Below are positions 26,005 to 64,000 of a stretch of 64,000 nucleotides of DNA, in pieces (the first letter of the stretch is position 1; the number at the start of each line of letters is the position of its first letter). Position numbers and translations under genes: made by a program. Source of the DNA: Candidatus Marinacidobacterales bacterium (lineage in GTDB: Bacteria; Acidobacteriota; Vicinamibacteria; Marinacidobacterales; DATDRI01); assembly GCA_965219415.1 (NCBI GenBank), contig CBDCNP010000002.1:4416001-4480000 (forward strand), given 5' to 3'. A model generated the notes under the pieces. The model was given only the letters and a program-made list of their open reading frames with translations, was not told where the DNA came from and made no database searches.

Positions 26005-26038
26005 CGTCGTGTGCCAAAACTCGGCCCTTTTGAAATAG
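26005..26038 (+). repeat. A end (E-like tip CGTCGTGTGCC), interrupted by IS3
   Basis: Direct sequence match to A. Confidence 0.88.
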
Positions 26039-26905
26039 TGAAGTGACCCCGCTTTCGTGGACAGGTTAAGAGTTAGGGATCAAGCGTCGCGATAGTACCT
26101 CCTTTCGAATTGGATAGGCGAGCAATAGTCGATGGCGGAGTGTCGTCGTCGCGGGTTGTACCAGCCTTCGATGAAATCGAAGGTCGCCATGCGCGCCTCA
26201 GCGTGGTAGCGAAACGACCGGCGCTCGATCAGCTCGCACTCGAGCGTCGCGAAGAAGCTCTCGCACATCGCATTGTCGTAACAGTCCCCGACCGAACCCA
26301 TCGACGGTCGCACCCCGGCCTCCCGGCATCGCTGGCCGAACGCTAGTGACGTGTACTGCGTGCCCTGGTCCGAGTGATGGATGACGTCGCCGGGCTTGCG
26401 TTGGAACAGCGCCATGTCGAGGGCGCTCAAGACGAGCGACGTCCGCAGGTGGGTAGCCATTGCCCATCCGACGATGCGTCGGCTGAAGGCGTCCAGCACG
26501 ACGGCGAGGAACAAGAAGCCCGACCACGTGGGCACGTAGGTGATATCGGCGACCCACAGGCGGTCGGGCCGGTCCACCTCGAAATTCCTGTCGACGAGAT
26601 CGGGGGCGGGACGGGCGTCGTCACAGCGAATCGTAGTGTGCGCCCTCTTGCGCCGGTGAACACCTTGAATGCCAGCCTCGCGCATCAGCCGCGCTACACG
26701 CTTGCGTGAGACGTGGAGCTCGTGTGTCTCTCGTAGCTCGTGGAGGATCCTCGGCGCGCCGTACGTGCTCCGCGACGCGGTGTGAATCGCCCGGATCTTC
26801 TCAAGCAACTCCGCATCCGACACCGCGCGGGCCGACGGGGCACGCTCAAGCCACGCATAGTAGCCGCTGGCGGAGACGTCCAGCAGTCGGCACATCGTGG
26901 CAACC
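26039..26905 (-). mobile_element. IS3-family element, orfB and right IR (TGAAGTGACCCCGCTTTCGTGGACA); 5' part cut by an A end
   Basis: ORF 26080-26895 with WVADITY, HHSDQG, DNAMCESFF; near-identical to the element at 63266. Confidence 0.93.
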
Positions 26906-27834
26906 CGTCCTGTGCCAAAACTCAGCCCTTTTGAAATAGGCCATAAATCAGCAGCTTAGTGTCTGTGTTTGCGACCGGGCTAAGGGCCGTGGGCTTTACA
27001 ATCGTCTGGCCCGAGGGTGTTATCTTCAGCTCCATGATGACCTACCACGTGCAATTCCTACTGCTCGTTCTGGCTGGCTGGGTCAACCGCCAGCAGCAGG
27101 ATGTGATCGACTACCAGCAAGAGGAGAACCGTGTGCTCCGAGCCGGGCTTCGGGGCAAGCGTCTCAGGCTCTCGGACGACGAGCGGCGCAGGCTCGCCGT
27201 CAAGGCCCAGGCCTTGGGCCGCGATGTGCTGGCCCAGATTGCCTCAGTTGCCACACCCTCTACGCTGCTGCGCTGGTATCGCTACCTCATCGCAGCCAAG
27301 TACGATGGCAGCAAGAACCGGAGCCCAGGCCGACCTCCCACGGCGAAGGACATCCGTGAGCTCATGGTACGCATGGCGCGGGAGAACCCGACGTGGGAAT
27401 ATACGCGCCTGCAGGGCGCACTCAAGAACCTTGGACATGAACTCGGACGCAACACCATCAAGAGGGTCCTCGCCGAGCACGGTATCGCGCCTGCCCCGGA
27501 GCGAGGCAAGAGCATGTCGTGGAGCACCTTCATCAAGGCTCATGGGGGCGCTATCGCCGCGACAGACCTGTTCACCGTCGAAGTGGTGAACCCGTTCGGG
27601 CTCGTCCGCTACCATGTCCTGTTTGTCATCGATATCGTCACCCGCTGCGTGTGCATCGGTGGGATAACTTCGGACCCCAACGGAGAGTGGATGAAGCAGG
27701 TAGCAAGAAACCTCACGCGGAAAGATTCGTTCTCTCCATACGTCGAGAATGTCTCGACCGCTTCGTACCTCTCAGTGAGGGACACCTGCGGACAGCGGTA
27801 ACCGAATACGTCGTGCACTATCACACAGAACGGA
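26906..27834 (+). mobile_element. IS-B: A end, leader, and an internally deleted, truncated rve transposase (start 27034)
   Basis: [41 protein letters not shown]; shows that A is the left end of this element. Confidence 0.88.
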
Positions 27835-28000
27835 GGTGCTTGCGCTGTTTACTGTTGGTGATGTGTACGCATCCCTTTGCAAAAAAGGCGCTTACGCTCC
27901 ATTTAGCGCGCAGCGAAGGTAACGAGCGCTATTTTGGCTGTAATTTAGTGCACCGTAAAGTCTTAGCGTTATCTCACCAACACTTAATGGCGGAAGCACC
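27835..28000. mobile_element. MITE D2 (166 bp), ends GGTGCTTGCG / GCGGAAGCACC
   Basis: Copies at 29506-29672, 49951-51584 (split), 52629-52794; partial copies at 42713 and 55090. Confidence 0.9.
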
Positions 28001-28078
28001 AATTTTCGAACACGACGACCTTCGTAAGCAGTGATTGCGCCGGCCCGGGGAGTGGTAGTATCATTTTGGTAGGTTCGA

Positions 28079-28807
28079 ATGAAACACATCAGACTGGTTG
28101 AGGCCTTCGTGCCAAAGAAAGATCGGTCGGAGGAACTGCGTCGCCAAGTAAACGAGCGCTATGGCGGCGAGGGTTTGACCCTCAGCGTAGGCTACCCAGA
28201 AGGGGAACCGGAGCTCGAAACAACGGAATCCGTCACCGCGCTCAGCCTTTCTGTACCCCAGCTCATCACGGATGCCGTGAAGGCCGAGCGGGAAGGGGTG
28301 GATGGAATCGTCGTCAACTGCATGGCCGATCCCGGCGTGCGGGAGATGCGCGAGAATGTTGCCATCCCGGTGCTCGGGCCCGGCCAAACCTCGATGCATG
28401 TGGCCACCTTGGTGGGGCGACGGTTTAGTCTCCTGGTGACCAGCGAGTTCTCTGCGCGTTATTTCGAGGAACAGGCGGAGAAGGTAGGGCTGGGCGCGCG
28501 GCTCGCATCCTGCGAAGTAGTTGGTATTCCGCCCGATGAGATAGGGGCCGATCCAGGACGAACCAAAGCTTTACTGGTCGAAGCGGCCCGGAGAGCGATC
28601 TGCGGAGCGAATGCTGACACGCTAGTGCTTTGCTGCACGGGGTTTGCATTTCTTGCCGGAGATCTCCGGAAGAAACTAGAGGCCATGAAGTTGAGCGTGC
28701 CCCTCATCGACCCGCTTGCCGTCACCATCCATACACTGGCGGTTCTCCTGGATGCTGGGCTCACCCACAGCCGAATCGCTTATCCCGGTATTCGTGCGTC
28801 CCCATAG
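28079..28807 (+). CDS. Hydantoin/Asp/Glu racemase family protein
   Basis: DGIVVNCMADPG, ADTLVLCCTGF, VPLIDP. Confidence 0.9.
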   Translation: MKHIRLVEAFVPKKDRSEELRRQVNERYGGEGLTLSVGYPEGEPELETTESVTALSLSVPQLITDAVKAEREGVDGIVVNCMADPGVREMRENVAIPVLGPGQTSMHVATLVGRRFSLLVTSEFSARYFEEQAEKVGLGARLASCEVVGIPPDEIGADPGRTKALLVEAARRAICGANADTLVLCCTGFAFLAGDLRKKLEAMKLSVPLIDPLAVTIHTLAVLLDAGLTHSRIAYPGIRASP

Positions 28808-28974: not shown

Positions 28975-29672
28975 TGTGCCTTCTATTTATTCATCCGCGT
29001 GCACCGAACTTGATTAGTCTCCGGTCTGCCAGCACCATGCCGGCATGATTTCGTCGTTGGTTCCCGCTCTCATCTCTGCCTTCAAGGCTCGTCGCGAGCT
29101 GGCTCTTGAGAATGTCGCTCTTCGACAGCAGCTCGCCGTCCTCCGCCGTTCGGTGAAACGCGTCGTGTCCAATAACACAAACGAACTCAAGATCCTTGCG
29201 CCGCCTTGGCCCGGTCGCAAACACAGACATCACCGAACGTTCGCTCCCTGGATTCTGTGCGGATTCCAAGGGCATCTAAGCTGCTGATTTGTGGTCTATT
29301 TCAAAAGGGCCGAGTTTTGGCACAGGACGCGGTCGCTGTCGAGAGCGAGCAGGATCTGAAATCCGGCTCTTGCGAACCCTTCGGAGAGCCCGCCGGCGCC
29401 GCAGAACAGATCCCGTGAGGTCAAAATACTCATGCGGCTTCCCGATGGTGGAAACGTAGCAACCCGCCAAGCCGTTCACGGGAGCGCACCTTGCGCTCGG
29501 ACTGAGGTGCTTGCGCTGTTTGCTGTTGGTGATGTGTACGTATCCCTTTGCAAAAAAAAGCGCTTACGCTCCATTTAGCGCGCGGCGAAGGTCGCGAGCG
29601 CTATTTTGGCTGTAATTTAATGCAGCGTGAAGTCTTAGCGTCATCTCACCAACACTTAATGGCAGAAGCACC
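28975..29672. repeat. Linker cluster: IS-C stub (28975-29160), E-A MITE (29161-29329), IS-D right end (29414-29505), MITE D2 (29506-29672)
   Basis: Each module matches copies elsewhere in the window. Confidence 0.88.
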
Positions 29673-29704
29673 ACACCCTGAGAGATGCTCCCTAGCCCAT
29701 CGGC

Positions 29705-30364: not shown

Positions 30365-30805
30365 CGTCCTGTGCCAAAACTCGGCTGTCCATCATCATTA
30401 TTAATCCGGGACTGGACTCTAGGGCCCGGACCGCCCTCGAGCACATGCTGGAGAGCGTGGTCAGCGCGCGAGGGAAGGTGCTGAGGACGAACTTCTCGGC
30501 GACCAGCCGAGTAACGCGAGCGACCAAGCTGACTCAGGCTGCCTCTCGCCACTCGTATCGATGGTGCAGTCCACCGACTCGCGGCAGTGCGACTACTTTC
30601 GCCGTAGGAGACGGTCGGTGCGTGACCGTTCTCAAGCTCGGTGTGTCCTTGTTCAGCCCCAAGTGGCAACGGTCCTCATGATAGTAGCTGATGTAAGCTC
30701 GCACGAGCCGGATGAGATGACATGCACCGAGAACCACGACGTGCTCAAGGAGCTCGCGACGGCAGCTGCCGACCCACCGCTCCGCGGTTCCGTTTTGCCA
30801 TGGGG
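30365..30805 (-). mobile_element. 21-bp A stub followed by an IS-A 3' fragment with right end (30386-30805)
   Basis: Matches the 3' part of IS-A starting at 9418. Confidence 0.9.
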
Positions 30806-30806
30806 C

Positions 30807-33477: not shown

Positions 33478-33617
33478 GGCGGCTCGGGCTCAATAGTTGC
33501 CCTCCGCTACCTCTTGGGTGCTTCCGCCATCAAGTGATGGAATGGACTCCTCCACTGACATAGACGGCATCGATGTGCCAAAGTCAGTCGAATACGCATC
33601 GAAAAGGAGGAGTCCGA

Positions 33618-34649
33618 ATGAAAGATACGACAATCGCTGTGGATCTTGCAAAGAACGTCTTCGAGATTGCCATCTCGGGAGAAGCGGGGAAGGTGTCCAA
33701 GCAACTCCGTGTGAGTCGACCCAAATTGGTGTCGTTCTTTGCCAAACAGAGCGCTGCCACCGTGCTTCTCGAAGCCTGCGGCTCGGCTCACTTCTGGGCA
33801 AGGACGTTCCGAAGGTTGGGACACGACGTCGTCCTGCTCCCACCTCACCTCGTGAGGCCGTATCGACGCGGGAGCAAGAACGACCGCGCCGACACGAAGG
33901 CGTTGCTCGAGGCCTACAGGAACGAGGAGCTTCTTCCCGTACCCATCAAGTCCGTGCACCAGCACACCCTCGCTGCGCTCCATCGCCTGCGCTCAGGATG
34001 GCTCTCCACACGGACCGCACGCATCAATGCCGTACGCGGGCTCCTGCGCGAACTCGGATTCATCATCCCAAAGGGCGCTCACTTCGTCGTGCCCGCCCTC
34101 TTCGAACTCGTCGAAGACGCTGATTCTGATTTGCCCGACGTGCTCCGTTCGCATCTCCGTGATGCCTGCTCCGAGATTCGAGAACTCAAGGACAAGTGCG
34201 CTAGCATCGAGCACGAGCTCAAGGCGCTCACCAAGCAGCTTCCTGAAGTCCAACGACTTCTCGCCATTCCCGGCATCGGACTTCTGGCCGCGACCGCCAT
34301 CGTGGGCTTCGTCGGCGATCTTCGCCGCTTCCCATCGGGGCGCCGCTTCTCGAGCTACCTCGGCCTAGTTCCCAAGGAAAACTCCAGTGGCGACATTCGC
34401 CGCCTCGGACGCATCACCAAGCGTGGCGACTCCTACCTCCGTATGCTCCTCACCCAGGGCGGGCGCGCCGTGCTCCGCGCGGCGAACGTCAGCAAGAGCC
34501 CGCCCGACAAGCTCCGCGCCTGGGCTCGGAAGGTCCACCGCTCGCGGGGACACAACAAGGCCGTGATTGCTGTCGCCAACAAACTCGCCCGGATCGTCTG
34601 GGCCGTCTCCACCCGCGAGAGTGAATTCCAGTCGCCGGTGGCCGCTTAG
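33618..34649 (+). CDS. IS110 DEDD recombinase/transposase
   Basis: AVDLAK, LEAC, KNDRAD, LGLVPKENSSG, AVANKLARI; AGGAGG RBS before ATG 33618. Confidence 0.95.
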   Translation: MKDTTIAVDLAKNVFEIAISGEAGKVSKQLRVSRPKLVSFFAKQSAATVLLEACGSAHFWARTFRRLGHDVVLLPPHLVRPYRRGSKNDRADTKALLEAYRNEELLPVPIKSVHQHTLAALHRLRSGWLSTRTARINAVRGLLRELGFIIPKGAHFVVPALFELVEDADSDLPDVLRSHLRDACSEIRELKDKCASIEHELKALTKQLPEVQRLLAIPGIGLLAATAIVGFVGDLRRFPSGRRFSSYLGLVPKENSSGDIRRLGRITKRGDSYLRMLLTQGGRAVLRAANVSKSPPDKLRAWARKVHRSRGHNKAVIAVANKLARIVWAVSTRESEFQSPVAA

Positions 34650-34714
34650 ATTTAGAGGCTCCACTTTCGTGTTTTCCTTTTTCCCTTCCAAAAGAGGCTG
34701 CGACGATACCCATC

Positions 34715-34880
34715 CAACTGATGGCGTACCGGTCGGACCGGCGCGGGGTCAAGCCAATAGCAACACTGGCCCTAAGAGGTCGTTCAAAGTGATTGGCTCC
34801 TCGCGCGCGGATTTTCCATCATGGCCCGGAGCACCCAAGACGCTCCTCACTGAGGCCGAAGATACGTTTGCAGTCTGACC
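34715..34880 (+). ncRNA. Predicted bridge/seek RNA with target- and donor-binding loops
   Basis: Stem AGCCAAT/ATTGGCT encloses TAGCAACACT (34758-67), a hairpin and AAGTG (34787-91), matching the two target strands; TTCCATCA (34814-21) and AGATACG (34860-66) match the donor circle junction. RNA boundaries approximate. Confidence 0.8.
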
Positions 34881-35205
34881 CACTCGTCACGACGCGATGG
34901 ATGCGCAGCTTCGATGGAAGATTTATTAAGAAAGGGGCGTGACTAGAAAGAAAGGGGCTTGACTAGAGGAGTCCAGATATGTTGCTACGCCGTGTTTGAA
35001 TGCTAGTGTCAGCTGGCCTGCCTGTATCGGCGAACGCCATCAATAAGGATGTCGGCGTGCACACGAAGGTGTCTCTGAACGTCAGGCACCGTGTGGTCAG
35101 CCCAGCCCGCATCGCCGAAAGAACTGCGTCTCTCGAAATCAGGCTCAAACTCTAGCACACGAGCGGGTTACGCGGCAGCTACCAACACTTGATGGCGGAA
35201 GCACC

Positions 35206-35351
35206 TCTACCTCGAGCTCCCCGTATCCCTCTTGCTCCATGACTTCTACTTCACCTAGACGACGCGTCTTCTTGCGTTCCTTGACCCTTCGTAGCAGACT
35301 TCCCATATCGGCTCCTTTCTTGAGCGGCTTGATTTAGCTTTTGACAACGTC
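35206..35351 (-). mobile_element. Probable IS256-family left-end stub
   Basis: End GACGTTGTCAAAAGC, GAAAGGAG RBS, MGSLLRRVKERKKTRRLGEVEV cut by the D end. Confidence 0.5.
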
Positions 35352-36277: not shown

Positions 36278-36766
36278 CGTCGTGTCCAAAAACACAAACA
36301 CACTCAAGACCCACGCGCCGGGACGCATAAGGGGAAGATTTTGTATTGCAGTAGGTTACATCAGATTCTAATATCACCGGTGTGCCTTCTATTTATTTAT
36401 CCGCGCGCACCAAACTTGAATAATCTCCGGTCTGCCAGCACCATGCCGGCATGATTTCGTCGTTGGTTCCCGCTCTCATCTCCGCCTTCAAGGCTCGTCG
36501 CGAGCTGGCTCTCGAGAATGTCGCTCTTCGGCAGCAGCTCGCCGTCCTCCGCCGTTCCGTGAAACGGCCACGGCTCTCGAATGTCGACCGCGTGTTTTGG
36601 GTGCTGTTGCGCAGAATCTGGACTGACTGGGAGAGCGTCCTCGTCCTGTGCCAAAACTCGGCCCAGCCGGCATCGACGAAAGAACTGCGCCTCTCGAAAT
36701 CAGGCTCAAACTCTAGCACGCGAACGGGATACACGGCAGGCGCCAACATTTGACTGCGGAAGCACC
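36278..36766 (+). repeat. Linker cluster: E end (36278), IS-C stub (36381-36641), hybrid MITE H = A end plus D1 right half (36642-36766)
   Basis: Matches other copies in the window. Confidence 0.88.
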
Positions 36767-36880
36767 CGAGTTCCATTCTTCGCCGCTTGTACGCTACTAG
36801 GTGGAGGACCGCGATATGCGTCTCCATCGCGCGCAATCGACCGAGAGAACGACGGCATAGCCTGTGAGAGGTAAGATAAG

Positions 36881-38953: not shown

Positions 38954-39426
38954 GGGCCCCTTTGCTCCACGGGCGTTGCCCCGTTTCAACGCTACTACGG
39001 ACCCAGCCGCCACCGTCTCGTCTTCGACCGTTTTCCCGGGGCCTCCGGTTATGCGGTCTACCTTGCTCCGTCGATTTCTCGACGGGACGAGGACGGCTTC
39101 TCCAGTGGCTTGGTATGTCCTTGTCACCGTGCTGTCCCTACCACCCCGCCAGAGGGATGTGCCTCATCAGATAGTCTGACAACACATCCTGTTGCCTTCG
39201 TCCGACACGAGAAAACTCGGCCTCTGGGGTCTATTTTTTTGTCGGGGCCACCTATGGGTTCACTTGTGTTACGGCCCGGTGACTCGCTCACCATCCTCAA
39301 GATGGCTTTGTCAGTCAGCTTCATCCGTCTCGTTTCCTCCACGAACGTGACTCAAGCTACGGGGCGCTAACTTTTTCCCCGGTGGGACTCTCTCCCACTG
39401 AACATGCCAGCCTTCGCTGGACGCAC
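38954..39426 (-). ncRNA. Group II intron, 5' part (domains I-III), no RT ORF or DV/DVI
   Basis: 5' GTGCG at 39426; GCCGAG-loop-CGAAGGC carrying EBS1 TCGTGTC; EBS2 CAAAAA; domain III-like CGTAGTAGCG..GAAACGGGGCAACGCCCGTGGAGCAAAGGGGCCC. Confidence 0.88.
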
Positions 39427-39458
39427 TCGTGTCCAAAAACACAAACGAACTCAAGACC
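39427..39458 (+). repeat. E end lacking its first 2 bp (5' exon of the intron)
   Basis: TCGTGTCCAAAAACACAAACGAACTCAAG. Confidence 0.9.
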
Positions 39459-42196: not shown

Positions 42197-42993
42197 GGCC
42201 AGACGATTGTAAAGCCCACGGCCCTTGGCCCGGTCGCAAACACAGACACTAAGCTGCTGATTTATGGCCTATTTCAAAAGGGCTGAGTTCTGGCACAGGA
42301 CGGGGTAGATCTACGTCAGAGGGTTCACAGCCCTGACGTGGTGAATCAGCAGAAAACCCAGATGCGCGTCCGTCGCGGTTCCCGTCCTGTGCCAAAACTC
42401 GGCCCAGCCGGCATCGACGAAAGAACTGCGCCTCTCGAAATCAGGCTAAAATTCTAGCACGCGAACAGGTTACGCGGCGGCCGCCAACACTTGACTGCGG
42501 AAGCACCCATCGGTGCATCGGTTGCGTGACCTTCATCATTATTGTGGTCGGCACCCTGAGCATCAGCGGGGGAACCGTCCAGCGCAGCGGGCTTCTGGTC
42601 AGGCTCCATCGTTGTCCTCCGCCGTGATTCGGCCACGGGTGCTCCGCGATAGGCGGGGCGGACACGGACTCTATGCCGTCCTGTGCCAAAACTCGGCCCT
42701 TTTGAAAGACCATGGCTGTAATTTAATGCACCGTAAAGTCTCAGTGTCATTTTACCAACACTTAATGGCGGAAGCACCCATGAGGTCTGTGTGAGCGGCA
42801 GGGCTGCCCGATCGAACAACGGTTGCCTGACCAACAGTAGGAATTGCACATGGTACGTCATGATGGACCCGAAGATAACACCCTCGGGCCAGACGATTGT
42901 AAAGCCCACGGCCCTTGGCACCATCGCAAAACACAGACGCTAAGCTGCTGATTTATCGGCTATTTCAAGAGGGCCGAGTTTTGGCACAGGACG
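42197..42993. repeat. Dense linker cluster: reverse A/IS-B leader (to 42302), H (42383-42507), G (42512-42676), A stub (42677), D2 half (42713-42778), reverse IS-B start (to 42993)
   Basis: All modules match other copies in the window. Confidence 0.88.
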
Positions 42994-49561: not shown

Positions 49562-50067
49562 CGTTCCCGGTAGGGTCGAGGGCTGGCGCGGTGCTCCGTA
49601 GGCGCGGCCTATCTGTTTCTCCCCGTTTCCTGTGGGAGTTGTGCTCCGCGAAAAGTCGATCCAGCATCGATTGCGCGGTTTAGATCTGCCATGAGAGGGG
49701 AATACGGTGGCGGCGAAGACCGGACACATACCGGCGCGGGGCCGAGCTGGAGCGGGACAACCGGAAGATCGATGTCAACGTCGCGGTTAGCTATGCGCTC
49801 GACGAGCGGCTGGGGGTGTGGGTCCCCGTCGAGATGAGAGAGGCCTACGGCGACGGGCGACGACCGCTTGATGCACGGCCACCTATCACAACTACCGGCG
49901 TTTCGGTGTCGACGCCCGCGTGCTGACGCCCTGCGACTAGCTATCCCACCGGTGCTTGCGTTGTTTGCTGTTGGTGATGTGTACGTATCCCTTTGCAAAA
50001 AAAGCGCTTACGCTCCATTTACTGTGCGGCGAAGGTCGTGAGCGCTATTTTGGCTGTAATTTAATGC

Positions 50068-51527
50068 GGGGATGTCCCGCCGGATGTTGAATTTGGGGTA
50101 GCGGCGGCTCCTTGGCCGGCCTAAGAATAGGTCTGCCAAACAACCGTCTCCAGAGGGGGACAAGGAGCCACCAATGCCTAGGAAATCAAAGAAGCCAGTA
50201 AGAAAGCAAACGCACTCGCCTACGGGCAAGGTAGTTGGCCAAGTCGGTCAGATACTGCTACCGATGATAGCTGGGATCGCGGCCACGAAGGCGGAACTGA
50301 CGGAATGGGTGTACGAGCAAGGACTGACAGCTCTGCACCTACTGCTCAGAGAGGACGCCGAGGAGATCGCGGGGCTCAAGGGCAAGCACGAGAAGGAGCG
50401 AACTCATAACCACTGGGGGAGCACGAACGGAGAGCTGAGCTTCGGTGGTCGTCGCATCCAAGTGTCGCGACCTCGAGTTCGCTCGAAGTCGGGCGAGGAG
50501 GCGTCGCTTCCACACTTCGAAGCCTTCCGCGAAGAAGACCCGCTTCCAGAGCGAGCGTTGAATCAGATCTTGGTGGGGGTATCGACCCGAAATTACGAAT
50601 CGAGTCTGGACAAACCCGCGGCCAAGTTGAAGTCTCGTGGCACGAGTAAGAGTGCCGCCAGCCGTCACCTCGTGAGCCAGACGACTAAGAAGCTCGAGGA
50701 ATACCTGTCTCGGCGGCTAGAGGAGTTCGAGCTTGCGGCACTGATGCTGGATGGCCTTGAGGTGGCCGGACAGACCGTCGTCGTAACTCTAGGTATCACA
50801 ATAGATGGAACGAAGGTGCCCCTGGGTATATGGCTGGGCTCGACGGAGAACTCTCGGGTGTGCACCGCGATGTTGCAGGACCTTCTCGAGCGGGGCTTGC
50901 GCGTCGATGAGTCGATTCTCTGCGTAGTGGACGGAGGCAAAGGCATCCGCAAGGCACTCGTCGACGTTTTGGGGGACCTCGCGGTCATCCAAAGGTGCCA
51001 GATCCATAAACTCCGGAATCTTCGCTCGTACCTTCCCAAGTCTCGTCACGCCTACGTGCTCCAGACGATGAAGGAAGCCTACAAGTGCAAGAGTGCCGAC
51101 AAGGCGCGCAAGCGACTTCAGGCATTGGTGTCGTGGCTCGAGCGAAACGGCTACGACGAAGCTGCCGGAAGCCTTCGTGAAGGGATGGAAGAGACACTCA
51201 CGGTCGTGAAGCTCGCGCTGCCCGCCTTACTTCGCCAGTCTCTTGCCACGACGAACGCCATTGAGAATCTCAACGGAACCATTCGCAGAGTATCGAGAAA
51301 CCTCAAGCGTTGGAAGAGTCCTTCCATGGTTCGCCGATGGACCGCTCTTGGCGTCGTCACCGCGCAGAAAAAGTTCCGGCGTATCAAAGGCTATCGCCAT
51401 ATGGGCGCTCTCGTTCACGCGCTTAGAAGCAAACAGAAATCTCTTGACAGCGATGAGTTTGCTGCCTAAGAGTATTCACAGGTGCCGCCGCTACCCGACC
51501 AAATTCAACAGCGGCCGGGACATCCCC
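50068..51527 (+). mobile_element. IS256-family element, imperfect 27-bp TIR GGGGATGTCCCG...TGTTGAATTT, 8-bp TSD TTTAATGC
   Basis: TIR and TSD (50060-67, 51528-35) seen directly. Confidence 0.95.
50174..51469 (+). CDS. IS256-family transposase
   Basis: GVSTR, LMLDG, VVDGGKG, QRCQIHK, TTNAIEN. Confidence 0.95.
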   Translation: MPRKSKKPVRKQTHSPTGKVVGQVGQILLPMIAGIAATKAELTEWVYEQGLTALHLLLREDAEEIAGLKGKHEKERTHNHWGSTNGELSFGGRRIQVSRPRVRSKSGEEASLPHFEAFREEDPLPERALNQILVGVSTRNYESSLDKPAAKLKSRGTSKSAASRHLVSQTTKKLEEYLSRRLEEFELAALMLDGLEVAGQTVVVTLGITIDGTKVPLGIWLGSTENSRVCTAMLQDLLERGLRVDESILCVVDGGKGIRKALVDVLGDLAVIQRCQIHKLRNLRSYLPKSRHAYVLQTMKEAYKCKSADKARKRLQALVSWLERNGYDEAAGSLREGMEETLTVVKLALPALLRQSLATTNAIENLNGTIRRVSRNLKRWKSPSMVRRWTALGVVTAQKKFRRIKGYRHMGALVHALRSKQKSLDSDEFAA

Positions 51528-51606
51528 TTTAATGCAGCGTAAAGTCTTAGCGTCATCTCACCAACACTTAATAGCGGAAGCACCCATCACAGCAAAAGGG
51601 TCACTT

Positions 51607-52083: not shown

Positions 52084-52152
52084 CTAGACGGTGCTTTCGT
52101 CATCAGGTGTTGTTAAGCGGCTGCCGGCATGGCAGGATGCCGGGAGAGACCG

Positions 52153-53049
52153 CGTCCTGTGCCAAAACTCGGCCCAGCCGGCATTGACGAAAGAACTGCG
52201 CCTCTCGAAATCAGGCTAAAATTCTAGCACGCGAACAGGTTACGCGGCGGCCGCCAACACTTGACTGCGGAAGCACCCATCGGTGCATCGGTTGCGTGAC
52301 CTTCATCATTATTGTGGTCGGCACCCTGAGCATCAGCGGGGGAACCGTCCAGCGCAGCGGGCTTCTGGTCAGGCTCCATCGTTGTCCTCCGCCGTGATTC
52401 GGCCACGGGTGCTCCGCGATAGGCGGGGCGGACACGGACTCTATGCAGTCGGACGCGGATGCCCGAACTCGTCTACTGGATGACCCGCCGCCAATAGCGC
52501 CTTCTGAATACTCCGCAGAACATCGGGTGCTTTCAGCATTTCGCTACTAAAGTGAGGATTGGAGGGGAGCACCAAGTCGCATACACGTCCATTTTTATCC
52601 AGTTTGTAGAATATGACAGTGGCTTGTCGGTGCTTCCGCCATTAAGTGTTGGTGAGATGACGCTAAGACTTTACGCTGCATTAAATTACAGCCAAAATAG
52701 AGCTCACGACCTTCGCCGCGCGCTAAATGGAGCGTAAGCGTGTTTTTTGCAAAGGGATACGTACATATCACCAACAGCAAACAGCGCAAGCACCGGACGG
52801 TGTTTCCCAGCGCGTACGGGGGAACCCGAATCGCCGCCTGCGGGGCGCACTCAAGAACCTCAAACACAGACACTAAGCTGCTGATTTATGGTCTATTTCA
52901 AAAGGGCCGAGTTTTGGCACAGGACGGGGAACCCGAATCGCCGACATCGCCTCCGACACACCCCAGAACTGGGGCTCGCCACAAGTCGATGACGATCGAA
53001 ACGGCCCGGCGCGCCAGTCTTGAGTTCGTTTGTGTTTTTGGACAGGACG
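52153..53049. repeat. Linker cluster: H (52153-52277), G (52282-52446), reverse D2 (52629-52794), reverse A (to 52926), reverse E (to 53049)
   Basis: Matches other copies in the window. Confidence 0.88.
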
Positions 53050-54855: not shown

Positions 54856-54962
54856 GGCTAGGCAACATCTGATTTTCCGGTATTGACCACGTTGGCCGCT
54901 GGCTGTTGTGATCCGCAAAAAAGAAAACCGGCCAGAAGCAGCCGACTATGGTAGGTCTAACC

Positions 54963-55160
54963 CGTCCTGTGCCAAAACTCGGCCCAGCCGGCATTGACGA
55001 AAGAACTGCGCCTCTCGAAATCAGGCTAAGACTCTAGCACGCGAACAGGTTACGCGGCGGTCGCCAAACACTTGACTGCGGAAGCACCCTAAATGGATCG
55101 TAAGCGCTTTTTTTGCAAAGGGATACGTACACATCACCAACAGCAAACAGCGCAAGCACC
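54963..55160. repeat. H module (54963-55088) abutting a partial reverse D2
   Basis: Matches other copies in the window. Confidence 0.88.
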
Positions 55161-55913: not shown

Positions 55914-56273
55914 AATTCCCTCCAGAGCATGTGAACGACCCGTTAACCGGTTTGAATGTGAAAAATCTAAGGCGATGACCGTTGTTGAAATACTCGATTC
56001 AACTCGGCTCCCAAGACAGTTCCCTTCTGAAGACTCGACAGACCTGGGTAGCCCGGAACTGCCAAGAGAGAGTTCGTCCCCAAGGTGCTTAGTCTCAGAT
56101 CCCAAACGCTATGAAGTACGGTTGCACGCTTAAATGCTACTCAGTTTCAACGGGTCGGACAAGTGCAATCGCGCGTCGGGTGCAGAAGGAGCACACTTTC
56201 TTAATTATTGGGATGTGTCCCGAGGTCCGTGGAAAAAGAACGGCACCCTCCACTCCGTCATCAGAGTATCATA

Positions 56274-56608
56274 TCAGGCGGCAACCTCCGCGTGTTCGAG
56301 AACCTCGCTCAGACGTTGGTAGCCGTCGATGCGTCGTAGTTGAATCTGGCCAGAGGCGATAAGCCCAAACAGCAAAGCGACCGCAGACTCCTCGCTGGAG
56401 AACGACGCTTGGGTTTTCGTCCGGCGTCGAAACTCGCGGTTGAGATTCTCCAGAGCTTTGGTCGTTCGAAACGGTTTCCACATGGCACGAGGGAATTCGT
56501 AGAAGGTCAGCAGCTGATTACCGGCCTCCTCTAGGCTTCGGACGACGGCCGGCGCGAGAGGCGTCCACTTGGCGACGAGCTCGTCATAGGCTTTGCGAGC
56601 ATCGATCC
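56274..56608 (-). pseudogene. IS256-family transposase 3' fragment
   Basis: LLTFYEFP...RTTKALENLNREFRRRTK; cut by an A end. Confidence 0.82.
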
Positions 56609-56937
56609 CGTCCTGTGCCAAAACCCGGCTGTGCCTTCTATTTATTCATCCGGGCGCCCCAAACTTGATTAGTCTCCGGTCTGCCGGCACCATGCCTGCT
56701 TGATTTCGTCGTTTGTTCGCGCTCTCATCTCCGCCTTCAAGGCTCGTCGCGAGCTGGCTCTCGACAATGTCGCTATTCGGCAACAGCTCGCCGTCCTCCG
56801 CCGTTCGGTGAAACGGCCGCGGCTCTCGAACGTCGACCGCGGGTTTTGGGTAACTGTAGAGCCTAAGGGCCCTTGGCCCAGTCGCTAAGCTGCTGATTTA
56901 TGGTCTATTTCAAAAGGGCCGAGTTTTGGCACAGGAC
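56609..56937. repeat. 21-bp A stub, IS-C stub (from 56630), reverse A
   Basis: Matches other copies in the window. Confidence 0.88.
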
Positions 56938-57010
56938 TGGGTGAACCCCGACGCCCTGAAAGACGATGTCCGTCCCGTCACCCACTGGGACAAGCGGTGA
57001 GACATTCACC

Positions 57011-59635
57011 TCATCTGGAGTGCGGCGCCTCAGGCGGTGCGAGGATCGTGTTGAACAATAGGTCAAACGTGCCGACGCTCAGCCAACGGTGAACGGGGTT
57101 GAACGCGAACATCACGAGTTTGCCTCGTCCGATGGGCGCTTCGATGATCGCCGGCGCGCCTCGAAGTGGCACGGCATTGTCGGCAAGCCCAGATAACCAC
57201 GTTTCGTTTTCCGCGAAGCGGAGCAGCACAGAGGCGCTGCCGCCTTCCATCACCGAGAACACCGGGGCCTTGGCGAAAAAAACTGCCAGCTCTCGAGAGT
57301 AGCCGTCCGTCGTCGGCCGGCGGTCGTCGACAACCTCCGCGCTCAATATCGATCCGGGGACGAGAAGCCCCGGTGGGTCGACGATCGCGACATCGGGTAC
57401 CAACCCATAGTCCACCGGAACTCGACACGCCGATCCAATGGTAACGAGAGTCCCGCCGTCTCTCACAAACGTCTCGAGATTCTCCACTCCCACCAGACCC
57501 ATCCCGCCCGTGATGTCTTCGGAGGAATCGTAGTCGCCCATGAAACGAAACCGCGCCGTCCTAGCGTAGGCGAGCGGTCCGTACTTTCGGTCCAACCCGG
57601 CCACGATGGCTTCGCCATCGCCTCTCCCGGCGGGACTCGCCGGAGCGAAAACGAGCGCGTCGAAGTCTTTCGCCAATCCTCCGCGTCGCAATCTCTCTTC
57701 GTTGACTAGCTCATAGCGAACCCCCAGTGTATCCAGCGTGAACCGGAGCCAACCGGTGTCCTGTGTATATCTCCAGGTGTAGACGAGTCCGACACGCGGT
57801 GAGCCAGCTTCTTCGAAGCGACGCTTCAAGGCCTTCGTCTCCGTGTAGCCGTTCGGTACCTCCGTCACCACCGGCTCCATCGCGGCGTTCAAAATGGCTT
57901 GGTCCCGCACTTCCATCGTGCGGACGCCGTACATGAGGCCAAGTGTCCAGGCGGTGTCGTCATAGGAAGGGGGGGCGTTCTTCGGATATTTCTGAATCTC
58001 GAACAGGGTCTGGATGAAGTTCCGGTAAGGCTGGTCCATGCGGACGACGTAGGAACCCCGAGGCAAGCGTGCCTCACCCGCGCCGACCGCTTCCACGCTC
58101 GCTCCGCCATCGACGCCGCTCGTATCCACTACCGACGCCAACGTCATTTCGGCAGTCAGTCGGTGGACCTCGATCCCGTGGCGACGAACGAGGTTGACCA
58201 GCGAGGTGGCCCGTGCGTCAGCGTCTCGATGCCCAACGCTCCCCTGCCCCGAGGGGACTACCCATGCGTAAGGTGGCTCGGTCCTCCCCCGATGAAGGGA
58301 GTTGGAGCTCTTTTTCCAGAAGTTCTCGAGTAGCGTCTCGGGGTGACGGGCAACCAGATCCAATGCGCTCAACACCGCAGTCTGTTGGTAATTGATACTG
58401 TTCCGATGGGACCATTCGACTTCCCGGTAGGGTGGGACCGGCCGAAACCACTCCCGACTGAGACGGTTCGCGTACGTCCGGGTGTGATTGAAAATAGATA
58501 GAATCGGCTCGGTGAGCTCGCGTCTCATCGTGCTGGCCCCCGCATTGCCGAAGGATTGATGGAAGCGGCCTGCCGCATTTCGATTGACCGCGATCCAAGC
58601 TACGTACCCCGGGTACCAAGCCTGCGCGAAGTCATACACCCAAACGCCGGGCATACCCCAGCGATTCATTTGAGCTAGCTCGTAATGAGCCAACCACGAT
58701 AGCTCCGTTTCGTAGATGGGGCCGTAGTTAGGATAGTTCGGTCCGGTTCCGGTGAAGATGTAGAGAAACGGCAAGGACTCGTGGAAGTCGTCTATCACCT
58801 GAGGGTGGAAACTGTCGAAGAGCTCGAGCAAGGCACGGGTCGCCGGCTGGGAAAGAACGATGCCGTCCCGGTTCGTGTCGTGGTAGAGATACTTGCTCCA
58901 GTAGGGCGAGGCCGGTTTCCACTGCGTCTGATCGGTAATGTCGATCAGGTGACGCGAGTACCAATCGGCATATCGATCGCGCCCGTCGGGCTCGAAGACT
59001 GGCAGAATGAGAACGATCACTTCGTGACGAATCCGCTCGAGTGTCGGATCATCGCTGACCGCCAAGCGGTACGCCAGCTCCATCATCATTTCGGGGCTCG
59101 CGGTCTCCGCCCCCTGAACCGCTCCCATCACCGCGTAGATGGGTTTTCCTTCTCGAACGATGTCCGCGGACCGTGCCTCGGAGGTTAGTCTAGGGTCTGC
59201 GAGCGCGGCGGTCATGGATTTGTATTTCTCGATTTGCCGGATGTTCTCTTCCGAGCTGACGGCGAGCGCGATGATGCGGCGTCCTTCGCTCGATGTCCCG
59301 ATGAAGAATGAATCGACTCGCGCAGATTTTTCAGCCAGCGCTTCCATATAACGAACGATGTCCGCGTAGTAGGTCATCTTGCCAGGCTGACCTACGGTGT
59401 AACCGAGAACCTCTCGCGGCGGTGGTACGCCATCGATGGACGCGGGCAAGGGATCGACGAGCGGAGAGAGGAACTCCGGGCGCGTCGTATAGCTACGAAT
59501 CGCCCTCGTCCCCTCCTCGTCGACGCCCGCACGTTGGGAGGGCGCGGACTCTGCGGTCAAACCCGAAATCACCGAGACCAGGCATGCGATTGTAGTGCAA
59601 CGCGGCAGGGTTCCCATGTCCCAACCGTATATCAT
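57011..59635 (-). CDS. M14 zinc carboxypeptidase-family protein with C-terminal GATase-like domain
   Basis: IGTSSEGR, ELAYRL, PDGRD, HDTNRD, DFHES, YDDTAWTL. Confidence 0.85.
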   Translation of the reverse strand: MIYGWDMGTLPRCTTIACLVSVISGLTAESAPSQRAGVDEEGTRAIRSYTTRPEFLSPLVDPLPASIDGVPPPREVLGYTVGQPGKMTYYADIVRYMEALAEKSARVDSFFIGTSSEGRRIIALAVSSEENIRQIEKYKSMTAALADPRLTSEARSADIVREGKPIYAVMGAVQGAETASPEMMMELAYRLAVSDDPTLERIRHEVIVLILPVFEPDGRDRYADWYSRHLIDITDQTQWKPASPYWSKYLYHDTNRDGIVLSQPATRALLELFDSFHPQVIDDFHESLPFLYIFTGTGPNYPNYGPIYETELSWLAHYELAQMNRWGMPGVWVYDFAQAWYPGYVAWIAVNRNAAGRFHQSFGNAGASTMRRELTEPILSIFNHTRTYANRLSREWFRPVPPYREVEWSHRNSINYQQTAVLSALDLVARHPETLLENFWKKSSNSLHRGRTEPPYAWVVPSGQGSVGHRDADARATSLVNLVRRHGIEVHRLTAEMTLASVVDTSGVDGGASVEAVGAGEARLPRGSYVVRMDQPYRNFIQTLFEIQKYPKNAPPSYDDTAWTLGLMYGVRTMEVRDQAILNAAMEPVVTEVPNGYTETKALKRRFEEAGSPRVGLVYTWRYTQDTGWLRFTLDTLGVRYELVNEERLRRGGLAKDFDALVFAPASPAGRGDGEAIVAGLDRKYGPLAYARTARFRFMGDYDSSEDITGGMGLVGVENLETFVRDGGTLVTIGSACRVPVDYGLVPDVAIVDPPGLLVPGSILSAEVVDDRRPTTDGYSRELAVFFAKAPVFSVMEGGSASVLLRFAENETWLSGLADNAVPLRGAPAIIEAPIGRGKLVMFAFNPVHRWLSVGTFDLLFNTILAPPEAPHSR

Positions 59636-59708
59636 GGCGGCGAGCAGCTTGCGATTGCAGGAGCTCCGTTGGCAAAAAGCCGTCGAATTAAGGTAGATTC
59701 TCGCGGAG

Positions 59709-60422
59709 ATGAAAACAGCAAAATCAACGCTTCATATCGCGGAGGGAGGCTTCCTCGCTCGCCCCGAAAAAAAGGCCGACTCGGACCAGCGGGATGCAGA
59801 GATAAGGCCCTACGCCGCCCAGCAGCCCGGCTTCGTCGAAACCTATGGCGGTTCCATTACCGGTACCGACTGGGGCTTTTTCACTGCCAAGTTTCGGAGT
59901 CTGCAAGACATGGAACACTGGCAAGCGGACCGAACACATAACGATGTGCAAGACGAAGCGAGGGATTCGTTTTGGTACGCCTACTACGTTCGCAAAGGAC
60001 GCTTGCTATCAGCGGCCGAGACCGCCGAGGGGAAGCTCCTGTGCGAGGCGGTGTTGCTCCGCGACCAGCCGCTGAGTCCCGAGGAACATAACGTTGCCAA
60101 CGCGGCGGCCGTGGAGACTTCTCGATTCGGCGTTCTGCCGTACGAGACGCTGAGAGGTTCCCCCATCCCCACGCCCTACGTATTCACCGGCCCGGTGGGC
60201 GTCTTACCCCAGGCCGCGCCGGTGCAATACGTCTTGCTTACCTACTGGGAGAAAACCGAGGCCAGTGCCGCATGGCAAGAGTCCCCGGCGTTCCAACACT
60301 TCGAACAGCTCGGCCAAGTCTCAACCTCGCTTTACGTGCTAATTCCAGAAAGACAACCTCGCATGGGACTTCTTCCCGACCGTTTGCAGCGGGAGTGGGT
60401 CGCACCGGATGCGCCCATTTGA
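59709..60422 (+). CDS. Dimeric alpha-beta barrel (ABM-like) protein
   Basis: AQQPGFV...FRSLQDMEHW...H...WYAYY, and a second TYWE...AWQESPAF repeat. Confidence 0.6.
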   Translation: MKTAKSTLHIAEGGFLARPEKKADSDQRDAEIRPYAAQQPGFVETYGGSITGTDWGFFTAKFRSLQDMEHWQADRTHNDVQDEARDSFWYAYYVRKGRLLSAAETAEGKLLCEAVLLRDQPLSPEEHNVANAAAVETSRFGVLPYETLRGSPIPTPYVFTGPVGVLPQAAPVQYVLLTYWEKTEASAAWQESPAFQHFEQLGQVSTSLYVLIPERQPRMGLLPDRLQREWVAPDAPI

Positions 60423-60458
60423 TGCCCGAAGGACGCCGGGCTAGCCCCGTCACCAGAA

Positions 60459-60575
60459 ATGTCCAGCCAGCCCCGCAAGCCCCGTAAGATTGTCGGCGTC
60501 GACGTGGGCGGTACGTTTACCGATCTCGTGTGGATGGAAGAGGCGGGAGAGGACGTACGCGTGGCGAAGGTACCC
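60459..60575 (+). pseudogene. 5' stub of hydantoinase A/5-oxoprolinase
   Basis: IVGVDVGGTFTDLV...VAKVP, then the A end. Confidence 0.88.
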
Positions 60576-61398: not shown

Positions 61399-63031
61399 AT
61401 GACGAACGTTCCTACAGTCGTTGCCCATGCGGACTGGAGCATTTTACCGGTGAAGCGCTGGGTAGCGACAGCGCACCTCCGGGGCGACGGCTACGTCGCC
61501 GATGCGCCCCGCTCCGTCGGCGACGCCCGGCGATTGATCGCGTCCTTGGTGCCCTCGCCCTCAGCGACCATCCTCGCGGGATTTGATTTTCCCATTGGCG
61601 TACCCACCGCTTATGCACGGGTAGCCGGTGTCCGACACTTCCGCGCTCTCCTCGACGGCCTCGGCGCACCGCCGTGGGATGAGTTCGCCAAGCCGGCCCG
61701 CGTCGCTGCCGAGATCTCCCTCCTCCGCCCCTTCTACCCAGAGGGTAACGGCAGGGGGGCCCGCAAGGATGACCTCGTCGAGGCCTTCCGCGCGACCCGC
61801 TGGAAGGACCTGCTGCGAGAGTGTGACCGTGGTCAGTTGGGCCGTCCGGCAGCCGAATGCCTGTTCTGGACCCTCGGTCCCAAGCAGGTCGGGCGCGCCA
61901 CTCTGTCGGGATGGACGGAGGTGCTGCGACCCGCCCTCGCCGAAGGCGCGAGGCTCTGGCCGTTCGATGGTGCCCTTGAGAAGCTGCTGCAAGAAGCTGG
62001 CTGCGTGGTCGCTGAGACGTACCCCGCCGACGCCGTTCGACTCCTTAACTTGGAGCTACCTAGCCCGAGGGGCGGAAAGCGGGACTCGAGGTACCGACAG
62101 CGAGTCGGGCGCTCGCTCGTCACGACCGCGGAAACCGACAAAGCCGTCCGCCTATCCCCGGCGTTGCGCGAGGTGTTGCTCGACGGTTTCGGTCCGGACC
62201 CGAACGGTGAGGATCCGTTCGATGCGGTCATTGGCCTGCTGGCGATGTTGGAGGTTGTCCTCGAAAGACGCCCCGACGGGGCACCCTTGTCGGCAGCCGT
62301 GCGTGAGGTCGAGGGATGGATGCTCGGCTACGTCGTTCCGGAATCGGCGCATGCAACCGACAAGACCAGCGTGCCGCCGGAACCGGCGTCCCGCGACTGG
62401 CCGCTCCCGGAGCTCTTACCCGCGCGTCTAACCGGCGCCGAGCCCGTCATCGACGATGGCCGCCCGGTGCCTAGGCTCACCGTGCTCGACTTCTGGCGAT
62501 GGGCCGCATCGGATCTCGCAGACAACGTCGTGCGGGGTTGGTTCGCCGAGTTCATCGTGGGCTGCGGCCCTTGGCACCCACGACGGCGTTCGGCAGTCCT
62601 GGGACACCGTCGACGTGAAAACGAAAGCAGGCAAGACGATCCAGGTCAAGTGCTCCGCGTATCTGCAGTCGTGGGCCCAGAAGGAACTTTCCCAAGTTAA
62701 CTTCTCCGTCAAGCCTACCCGCGCCTGGGATCAAGAGACCGGCACCAGGGAGGATCGGGCGGGCAGGCACGCGGACGTCTACGTCTTCGTGCACCAGAAG
62801 CACATGGACAAGGCAACGCTCGACCCCCTTGACCTCACCCAGTTGGACTTCTATGTTGTCCCGACGGCGGTCGTCGAGGCGCGCTGGCCCCGGGCGGCTG
62901 CGCGTGTCGCTGGCCGCCGTGCGCGAGGCGGCCTGTCCAATCCGATACGCCGAGCTCCGGCGTGGGATAGAAGCACTCTAGGTCGACACTTGTTCGAACG
63001 ACGAAACGCCAAAATGCCCTGGGAAGGGTGA
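61399..63031 (+). CDS. DUF429 (RNase H-like) domain fused to a PD-(D/E)xK-like nuclease domain, frameshift near 62560
   Basis: HADWS, GFDFPIG, LWPFDG, AETYP, DPFDA; then DFWRWAASDL..NVVRG.FAEFIV / WDTVDV...IQVKCSAYLQSW, ADVYVF. Confidence 0.75.
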
Positions 63032-63079
63032 CAACCTCCTGAACGCGGCGCGCATCGAGACGGGCATGCTGTCGGTGCC

Positions 63080-63202
63080 CGTCGTGTCCAAATAAACAAA
63101 CGAACTCAAGGCCCTTGCGCCGCCTTGGCCCGGTCGCAAACATAGACACTAAGCTGCTGATTTATGGTCTATTTCAAAGGGGCCGAGTTTTGGCACAGGA
63201 CG
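63080..63202. mobile_element. Hybrid MITE E-A (123 bp)
   Basis: E end and reverse A end as imperfect TIRs; shorter relative of 29161-29329. Confidence 0.88.
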
Positions 63203-63265
63203 GGGGAGACATTTCCGATCGGCTCCAAGAGTCGTTGCGTGTGGTGCTTCCGCCATTAAGTGTTG

Positions 63266-64000
63266 TGGACTTGACCCGCTTTCGTGGACACCTAATCCTT
63301 TGGGAGACAGGAGTCCACGATGTCAAAGCAGGGAAACAGATACGCGGCCGAATTCCGGCGCCAAATGGTAGAGCTGGTGCGAGCTGGCCGCGGCTCCGAA
63401 GAGCTGGCGCGAGAGTTTGAGCCCTCGGGCCAGACGATCCGGAACTGGGTGAACCAGGCGGATCTCGACGAGGGTCGCAGGCAGGACGGTCTGACGAGTG
63501 AGGAGCGTGCGGAGCTCCGCCGCCTGCGACGGGAGAACCGTCAACTACGGTTGGAGCGGGAGATCCTCTCAAAAGCCGCGGCCTGGTTCGCTCGGGAGAC
63601 CGAGTCGGTACCACCGAAGCCTTCCGATTCGTGAGGGCGAACCAGGATTCACTACCGGTTGCCACGATGTGCCGACTGCTGGACGTCTCCGCCAGCGGCT
63701 ACTATGCGTGGCTTGAGCGTGCCCCGTCGGCCCGCGCGGTGTCGGATGCGGAGTTGCTTGAGAAGATCCGGGCGATTCACACCGCGTCGCGGAGCACGTA
63801 CGGCGCGCCGAGGATCCTCCACGAGCTACGAGAGACACACGAGCTCCACGTCTCACACAAGCGTGTAGCGCGGCTAATGCGCGAGGCTGGCATTCAAGGT
63901 GTTCACCGGCGCAAGAGGGCGCACACTACGATTCGCTGTGACGACGCCCGTCCCGCCCCCGATCTCGTCGACAGGAATTTCGAGGTGGACCGGCCCGACC
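63266..64000 (+). mobile_element. IS3-family element (left IR, orfA 63320-63634, orfB running off the window), inserted right after a 23-bp D end (63243-63265)
   Basis: IR TGGACTTGACCCGCTTTCGTGGACA; YAAEFRRQMVELV...EREILSKAAAWF; orfB near-identical to 26080-26895. Confidence 0.94.

Follow-up and report, generated by a model that had tools for sequence, protein, structure and literature searches.

Terminal repeats of two insertion sequence lineages as probable targets of an IS1111-type element and a group II intron in a Candidatus Marinacidobacterales genome

Most intergenic stretches of the 64,000-nucleotide window analyzed here (C3:4416001-4480000), part of the 8.05-Mb genome of a Candidatus Marinacidobacterales bacterium in three contigs (C1, C2 and C3), are made up of a few shared modules. 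[quoted passage not shown] We consider it highly probable that two RNA-guided elements, an IS1111-type member of the IS110 family and a group II intron, target these ends, and that the three other guests found at them (IS3, IS256 and the rve-type IS-A) behave as ordinary transposable elements. Such behavior of one parasite upon another is of an already known kind. A first-pass annotation of the window had named linker junctions for all five guests, and each of these junctions is present when read in the sequence.

Linkers as ends of two insertion sequence lineages

The D end reads GGTGCTTCCGCCAT[T/C]AAGTGTTG.. and occurs 581 times genome-wide at no more than 5 mismatches, with 548 occurrences in C3, 31 in C2 and 2 in C1. 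Pairs of D ends that face each other lie 160-169 bp apart (n=79; the D2 MITE), 240-259 bp apart (n=12; the D1 MITE) or 1100-1299 bp apart (n=32), and the 1200-bp class of D elements encloses a 354-aa frame with an IERLNLTIRQ motif. The A end, (A)CCCCGTCCTGTGCCAAAACTCGGCCC.., is found 536 times and the E end, TGTGCCTTCTATTTATTCATCC, 245 times across the genome. A-E pairs 140-179 bp apart constitute 108 MITEs, and A ends on both sides bound 11 elements of ~1418 bp that carry an rve_3 transposase. Because the transposase-bearing copies of 1200 bp and 1418 bp have these same ends, the linkers are identified as IS and MITE ends; the short modules are non-coding and share their terminal inverted repeats with an autonomous IS, as is characteristic of MITEs. 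Examples in the window include an unbroken 246-bp D1 MITE at 8629-8874, an unbroken 169-bp D2 MITE at 27835-28003 (+) with more copies at 29507-29675 and 52629-52796, and an A-E MITE at 11636-11785, together with a truncated A-A insertion sequence at 26904-27834. Hybrid modules were also noted at 36636-36767, 42374-42508, 52144-52278 and 54954-55088, with 20 A-end bases on one side and the right end of the D element on the other, joined at CTCGGCCC, a string also found within the right arm of the IS1-like element.

Nine sequences, centered on the window and incomplete as a collection, served as the linker library and cover 239,937 bp, corresponding to 3.0% of the genome, 3.9% of C3, 5.3% of C2 and 0.01% of C1. 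Further repeat families exist beyond this library, as 14-mers with at least 10 occurrences cover 15% of C3. The A, D and E ends, like IS-A, are restricted to C2, to the 2.5-5.7 Mb part of C3 and to two small islands (0.5-1.0 Mb and 1.5-2.0 Mb), with uniform G+C. IS256, in contrast, is scattered across all contigs. Judged by the distribution of repeat ends, the genome has a two-compartment look. Most probably, the two IS lineages have overrun one genome compartment (C2 and C3 2.5-5.7 Mb), the D ends being those of the 1200-bp IS1-like element and of its MITEs (169 bp and 246 bp), and the A/E ends those of rve-type (IS481/IS3-like) elements and MITEs of ~150 bp.

The linkers had previously been described as abundant and possibly mobile, which is borne out by the counts above and by the occurrence of the same ends on transposase-bearing elements. 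They had also been likened to integron attC sites; this attC-like reading is rejected, since elements of 1200 and 1418 bp that carry transposases are bounded by the same ends. No integrase family was found among the 48 open reading frames (ORFs) of the window that were scanned, and attC core-site motifs were not searched for. Nor did the proposal that the ends are long-lived find support: between genera, the parasites and the genes flanked by linkers share 92-99% identity, as against ~84% for core DNA within a genus, which indicates recent exchange rather than old age.

Linker preference and the IS1111-type element

To measure how often each guest resides at a linker, all BLAST copies were collected, matches below 100 bp or 90% identity were discarded, and the 60 nt outside each intact end were aligned to the linker library up to the junction. 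Flank-to-library BLAST was used because a mask-based classification of the flanks under-called insertions near element ends, to the point of reporting zero copies of the IS1111-type element with linker on both flanks. By this measure, all 27 full copies of the IS1111-type element have a linker on at least one flank and 25 have one on both. The corresponding values are 16/36 and 12 for IS3, 11/48 and 0 for IS-A, and 2/24 and 1 for IS256, and both intron 5' fragments (2/2) have a linker on at least one flank, none on both. Relative to the 3.0% linker share of the genome, the IS1111-type element, IS3 and IS-A are enriched; under a deliberately lenient null model that limits tolerance of insertions to 12% of the genome, a value assumed and not measured, this is true only of the IS1111-type element (P = 5e-17) and IS3 (P = 0.008). 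As the ends are compartmentalized, the counts were repeated within the compartment for copies with at least one intact end abutting a linker, using IS256 (3/13) as internal control. The IS1111-type element is again distinct (33/33; Fisher P = 7e-8 vs IS256), and IS-A is not (25/99; P = 0.58). Linker preference is present for the IS1111-type element and the intron, borderline for IS3, and absent for IS256 and IS-A.

The window copy of the IS1111-type element is 1445 bp long and lies at 33537-34981 (+), its boundary being ambiguous by a 2-nt TG common with the target. It splits a D1 MITE (33517-35207 (+); 246 bp without the guest) into parts at 33517-33536 and 34982-35207, such that the left repeat is cut after base 20. 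A DEDD (RuvC-like) transposase gene of 343 aa (33618-34649 (+)) is followed by a 332-nt 3' non-coding region (34650-34981 (+)), which is presumed to be a seekRNA/bridge RNA gene. The transposase matches PF01548 and PF02371 (the IS110/IS116/IS902 C-terminal domain), and its NF033542 score of 302.9 bits is well above the cut-off of 140. Sub-terminal inverted repeats, TGGACTCCTC, are present near both ends of the element (a perfect match over 10 bp, or 12 bp if one mismatch is allowed), and no target duplication was detected in the duplication test of the genome copies. IS1111 members are characterized by a DEDD transposase, a downstream non-coding region, the lack of a target duplication, sub-terminal repeats of ~11-13 bp and, beyond these repeats, extensions of 7 bp on the left and 3 bp on the right (PMC11187229).

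The precision of the insertion site is the strongest feature of this element. Every one of the 33 BLAST matches with a preserved left end, including the 27 of full length, comes directly after one and the same 20-base stretch of the D repeat, GGTGCTTC[C/T]GC[C/T]ATCAAGTG, placing the insertion point at GGTGCTTCCGCCATCAAGTG^TTGCTAC, between G20 and T21, always in a single orientation. The right flank of the full copies begins with TTGCTA in 25 of 27, with TTGGCGG in one, and is a partial tandem copy in the last. D repeats exist as variants that end in ..CATCAAGTGTTGCTAC, ..TTGGTGAG or ..TTGGCGG. The exact target, also written CATCAAGTG^TTGCTAC, is occupied at 29 sites and empty at 98 genome-wide, with the repeats ending in ..TTGGTGAG unused. 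From the right flanks, at least four kinds of host context can be distinguished (~14 IS1-like elements, 10 D1 MITEs and 2 other types). The guest copies are 99.4-100% identical, whereas their hosts differ in sequence beside the site, and we read this occupation of differing hosts by near-identical guests as many separate insertions rather than hitch-hiking. The IS1111-type element integrates into one variant of the D repeat, between G20 and T21, in one orientation and with no target duplication.

The same site is used beyond this genome. In five other MAGs (metagenome-assembled genomes) labelled Ca. Marinacidobacterales, the transposase is 89-98% identical and 46 of 53 left ends lie within the same D repeat; 11 further loci lack the left end. 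The seven left ends outside the D repeat keep just ..(A)AGTG, followed in two of the seven by TTGCT. Homologues at greater distance use other sites, as expected of a reprogrammable guide, and the use of other targets by homologues, which the first-pass annotation had named as grounds for refutation, is therefore not diagnostic.

Several stretches of the 3' non-coding region could supply such a guide. UAGCAACACU (34758-34767) is complementary to target positions 17-26 and so spans the cut, a 10-nt complement reached in 11 of 1000 shuffles of the non-coding region. UGAUGGCG (34719-34726) is complementary to positions 9-16 of the target top strand (8 nt), UCAAAGUG (34784-34791) resembles the left flank of the target, and UUCCAUCAU (34814-34822) could pair over 9 nt with the element's right end joined to its left end. 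The folding of the region (z = -3.3) surpasses that of every one of 100 shuffles. A relative with a different target, found in a Steroidobacteraceae MAG (L047; 46% identical), conserves the scaffold AAGCC..GAUUGGCUCC. Its stretch preceding GATTGGCUCC (GAUUGG) is GTCTTTG, which is the left flank of the L047 element itself, and its end-guide is TCTCAT, the complement of its own element end ATGAGA; this covariation was read by eye on one alignment. Complementarity and covariation together suggest that a guide RNA from the 3' non-coding region most likely reads both target flanks and the element's own ends.

The arrangement has several known counterparts. IS4321 and IS5075 reportedly target Tn21 terminal repeats, and IS1111-attC elements are said to target attC. 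The element described here shares with IS4321/IS5075 the IS1111-type organization, the sub-terminal repeats and a fixed position and orientation within the terminal repeat of another transposon, but the repeat that hosts it is that of an IS1-like IS with its MITEs rather than that of a Tn3-family transposon, and each genome offers hundreds of potential sites. With the IS1111-attC group (ISPa21, ISKpn4, ISPst6) and its seekRNA/bridge RNA mechanism, it has in common the DEDD transposase, the downstream non-coding region, short matches to both target strands and the lack of duplication (PMC11187229); it differs in having a transposon repeat and not an integron attC as its target, in the length of its terminal extensions, and in that its guide RNA is a prediction. 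In Coxiella burnetii, IS1111 inserts into QMITE2 MITEs and occupied and empty MITEs coexist (PMC5896051). In both cases all copies of the IS1111-family element share a single location close to a MITE family's end. Here, however, the host repeat is common with an autonomous IS1-like element, such that the guest also splits the repeat of an IS, the host organism is an acidobacterial MAG lineage, and the D elements show no direct repeats, unlike QMITE2 with its repeats of 7-11 nt (PMC5896051). No literature naming the order Marinacidobacterales was found, and no dedicated search was made for IS1111 members that target IS1-like repeats.

The element provides a clean example from nature, outside the Proteobacteria, of probable RNA-guided targeting of the IS1111 type, in which a single 20+7-nt site within another transposon's terminal repeat is occupied dozens of times and left empty about a hundred times per genome. 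The natural off-targets point to a minimal core of ..AAGTG^TTGCT, and the guide stretches of the distant relative have changed along with its target. These copies provide material for the guide rules of bridge RNAs and seekRNAs, and for the question of whether guests disable a host IS by splitting its repeat.

The group II intron and the other guests

A 473-nt 5' remnant of a group II intron occupies 38954-39426 (-), with its 5' end GTGCG at 39426 directly preceded by the E tip (39427-39457 (-); ..GAGTTCGTTTGTGTTTTTGGACACGA on the minus strand), which forms its 5' exon and presumably its homing site. The remnant matches RF02003, a domain I-IV RNA, with 120 bits over 39264-39400 (gathering score 49). 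Candidate exon-binding sites (EBS) were located by eye, with a putative EBS1 UCGUGUC (plus-strand 39204-39210) opposite the intron-binding site (IBS) IBS1 GACACGA, and a putative EBS2 CAAAAA (plus-strand 39234-39241) opposite UUUUUG. The intron probably retrohomed into the E tip through EBS1/EBS2-IBS pairing. Genome-wide, RF02003 yields six matches, every one a fragment, and the copy at C3:4236360 has an internally deleted ORF; the intron of this genome is a relic, represented by ORF-less remnants only. Intron relatives that are 84% identical (L095 and L096, from two other genomes, G008 and G022) encode a reverse transcriptase (RT; RVT_1) with a maturase (GIIM). The 5' flank of these RT-bearing introns is the E end proper (..GGATGAATAAATGGAAGG) and not the E tip, and they may be a second lineage aimed elsewhere in the same element.

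The 5' end of the intron is present on 4 of ~180 E tips. Three of these four junctions have one identical 60-nt upstream flank, so that two distinct flanks exist in the genome. Among relatives, the E-tip exon is found at 11 of the 17 loci with an intron 5' end, behind six different upstream contexts, and their E tip sits just inside another A-like end, CCCGTGAGGTCAAAATACTCATGCG. We conclude with moderate confidence that the intron is directed at the E tip more than chance would predict. RmInt1, a group II intron, reportedly homes into ISRm2011-2 and decays by fragmentation (PMC1802570, PMC4496777). The resemblance lies in a natural homing site within an IS, in an intron-encoded protein with RT and maturase domains only (here in the relatives) and in the accumulation of fragmented copies. 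The site here differs in being the E tip, which is sub-terminal in an rve-type element or MITE, with the intron antisense to the reading direction of the transposase in the window. Group IIC-attC introns differ as well, since the insertion site here is not attC.

The shared flank is what would be expected if a single entry into a D or E element, by the IS1111-type element and by the intron in turn, had been followed by passive multiplication with the host. An upstream flank common to two copies of the IS1111-type element, and IS3 at one A-end position in near-identical host repeats at two loci, fit this explanation as well. However, near-identical copies of the IS1111-type element occupy at least four types of host element with differing sequence adjacent to the site, the off-target copies in relatives keep only a short core, the non-coding region is complementary to the site, and 98 empty sites exist beside the occupied ones, all of which makes such hitch-hiking highly improbable. 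Targeting by the guests themselves remains the preferred explanation.

IS3 appears twice at linkers in the window. A truncated copy with orfB only (26039-26903 (-)) is cut off by the A end of the truncated A-A insertion sequence, and its right end at 26039 directly follows position 29 (..TTTTGAAATAG) of another A end (26003-26038 (+); the first 29 bases after a CCCGTC(G) lead). A full copy of 1258 bp (63266-64000 (+), continuing past the window to C3:4480523) abuts 23 bases of a D repeat (63243-63265 (+)) and has a 4-bp duplication, GTTG. The IS3 transposase scores 341.2 bits against a family cut-off of 160, and that of IS256 scores 220.7 against 150. IS3 makes duplications of 3-4 bp (4 bp in 18 of 36 copies), and its ends recur in the A end at position 18 (four times) and position 29 (five times, in both orientations). 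The AT-rich patch TTTTGAAATAG of the A end would accordingly be a hot spot of modest strength, with IS3 probably inserting by ordinary DDE transposition at two recurrent positions; some of the recurrent pairs might instead reflect composite copying of host and guest. IS256 (50068-51527) splits a D2 MITE (49951-51584 (+)) and is flanked by the 8-bp duplication TTTAATGC at 50060-50067 and 51528-51535; 19 of its 24 copies have 8-bp duplications. IS-A, which encodes a 349-aa transposase between ends TGTCC..GCACA, is present at 9418-10703 (-) and 15423-16708 (+) and as a fragment at 30387-30806. Its ends adjoin linker modules at 10953, 16708 and 30386 in one-sided junctions, which are not clean insertions. 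The frequency of IS256 and of IS-A at linkers is no higher than expected from tolerated, non-essential DNA.

These data also allow us to ask whether the five guests simply land at random, with the survivors found in harmless repeats and no targeting at all. Such a safe haven agrees with the behavior of IS256 (2/24) and IS-A (11/48, none on both flanks), which are neither above the intergenic-only null nor different from each other, and with the P of only 0.04-0.06 that separates IS3 from IS256 inside the compartment. For the IS1111-type element it is refuted by 27 of 27 copies at one phosphodiester bond in one orientation. The use of the same site in five other genomes, the position of the intron copies at a single point of the E tip and the recurrence of IS3 ends at two exact A-end positions likewise argue against it, and as an account of all five guests we regard it as unlikely. 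The caveat of the first-pass annotation that IS3 and IS256 might only reflect a safe haven is apt for IS256, and extends to IS-A. Its view that IS-A lands in linkers was not upheld, as IS-A is there no more often than IS256 and never on both flanks. The genome-wide enrichment that it proposed to test is clear for the IS1111-type element and borderline for IS3, with none for IS256 and IS-A, and the co-occurrence of ends and guests in other genomes, its other suggested check, was found for both the IS1111-type element (46/53 left ends) and the intron (11/17 loci). Of the two RNA guides it had postulated against the ends, the case is strong for the IS1111-type element and moderate for the intron, here only a relic.

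A number of observations weigh against targeting by two RNA-guided elements at the ends of two IS lineages, with the other guests ordinary. The genome is a MAG, 96% complete with an estimated contamination of 8.45%. IS1 is the best family for the 354-aa D frame, but the NF033558 score of 81.7 bits is below the curated cut-off of 100 and PF03400 reaches 22.1 bits against 24.1; as the D transposase falls under the curated IS1 cut-offs, the element is named IS1-like only. The A-A transposases are nearest to IS481/IS3, yet also under the cut-offs of those families, and linker families free of target duplications, described below, are not predicted by a plain MITE model. The extensions past the sub-terminal repeats of the IS1111-type element are 6/6 bp (up to 8/4 given the 2-nt TG ambiguity) and not 7/3, an Rfam search of the element returned no family (the sole match was a chance microRNA, E = 0.08), and contigs of four RNA-labelled public runs contain segments 90-99% alike to the transposase gene and to the D1 MITE, but hardly any of the non-coding region, speaking neither for nor against transcription. 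As for the intron, domain V (RF00029) gave no match in the genome with 150 of 702 candidates scored, no intact intron RT was found in the genome (tblastn with a relative's RT recovers residues 1-52 and 423-460 only), and the flank common to three junctions leaves only two independent intron events here. Finally, IS3 is weakly enriched within the compartment (20/35; Fisher P = 0.037 vs IS256).

Missing target duplications and captured blocks

The linker families themselves are almost devoid of target duplications, which number at most 2/79 for D2, at most 2/29 for IS1-like elements, at most 2/108 for A-E, 0-1/11 for A-A and 4/48 at 3 bp for IS-A. The same tests do recover the duplications of IS256 and IS3. 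When every left end was tested against every right end, no cross-copy duplication signal emerged in the linker families. Clean nesting of D or A elements in other library elements was not observed among 165 and 200 pairs, and no empty site for a D2 MITE was recovered in relatives, the left flank having no match and the right flank corresponding to a mobile block. Where a D element or IS-A abuts an A end, unrelated DNA is present on the opposite side, resulting in one-sided junctions.

Two blocks of genes adjoin such ends. A 3640-bp block with an M14 peptidase and ABM (56936-60575 (+)) is a copy of C1:675982-679621 with 1 mismatch, and in the window is situated between two inward-facing A termini with 3-4 nt of microhomology. 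The C1 locus is native, being syntenic with a same-genus genome at 84% identity in a repeat-poor contig; a same-genus relative has a 99% copy of the block besides its own 85% orthologue. If C1 and C3 stem from different cells, the apparent capture of this core block would be a transfer between organisms. The second block, 822 bp with DUF169 (C3:3426983-3431148, within-locus 2167-2988), shares 97-99% identity with its counterparts in four genomes from other genera or families, but only 81% with that in a same-genus genome. Homology stops exactly at the D repeat here, and in relatives 9 nt before an A-like end that is followed by an E tip. Together with other genes of the window, the DUF169 block is 97-100% identical in other genera, with homology ending at element ends. 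A genome-wide scan for captured blocks returned 48 rows, mostly other uncatalogued IS families, with linker termini on both sides of 1 block and on one side of ~6.

IS26 forms translocatable units, in which gene blocks are bracketed by copies of one element, lack flanking duplications and grow beside existing copies. By analogy, a shuffling system of this kind, free of duplications, may use the A/E and D ends as its working joints, a suggestion we make only tentatively. No IS6-family transposase is present here, and most of the brackets consist of MITEs and solo ends. Single-gene blocks with element termini on either side would be copied from the core genome, multiplied and passed between genera of the order, the 3.64-kb M14-ABM block would represent one such copy, and a third tier of parasites would be formed by the IS1111-type element and the intron, with guides that follow the joints. 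The linkers would then be recombination joints, attC-like or IS26-like, with blocks excised, copied and re-inserted beside existing ends, which is compatible with their being targets of the two RNA-guided guests. Consistent with this are the lack of target duplications in D, A-E, A-A and IS-A, set against their presence in IS256 (19/24) and IS3 (18/36), as well as the one-sided junctions of D and IS-A with A ends, the native C1 segment copied with a single mismatch between two A termini, the near-identity of the DUF169 block in four other genera up to the element ends, and the confinement of the ends to one compartment. However, only 1 of the 48 rows is a duplicated block with linker termini at both boundaries and ~6 have them at one, no recombinases besides transposases were identified, duplications were possibly lost by deletion or recombination among hundreds of copies, and no pair of empty and filled sites was recovered. 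We consider joints of this type possible but doubtful; the missing duplications and the captured core block are nonetheless the parts of this system that are possibly more than ordinary.

Outside the A/D scheme, a 404-bp repeat at 56211-56614 (with a minus-strand 115-aa ORF) has many copies in all parts of the genome including C1, and its family is 95-99% identical in relatives. Copies of IS-A are interspersed with a type I restriction-modification operon (hsdR, hsdM, hsdS) and with a pair made up of a DEAD-helicase and a BrxC/D-like ATPase, at 2827-8480 and 16951-20547 of the window. An amino-acid permease at 23181-24610 is split over two overlapping frames and is probably a frameshifted pseudogene.

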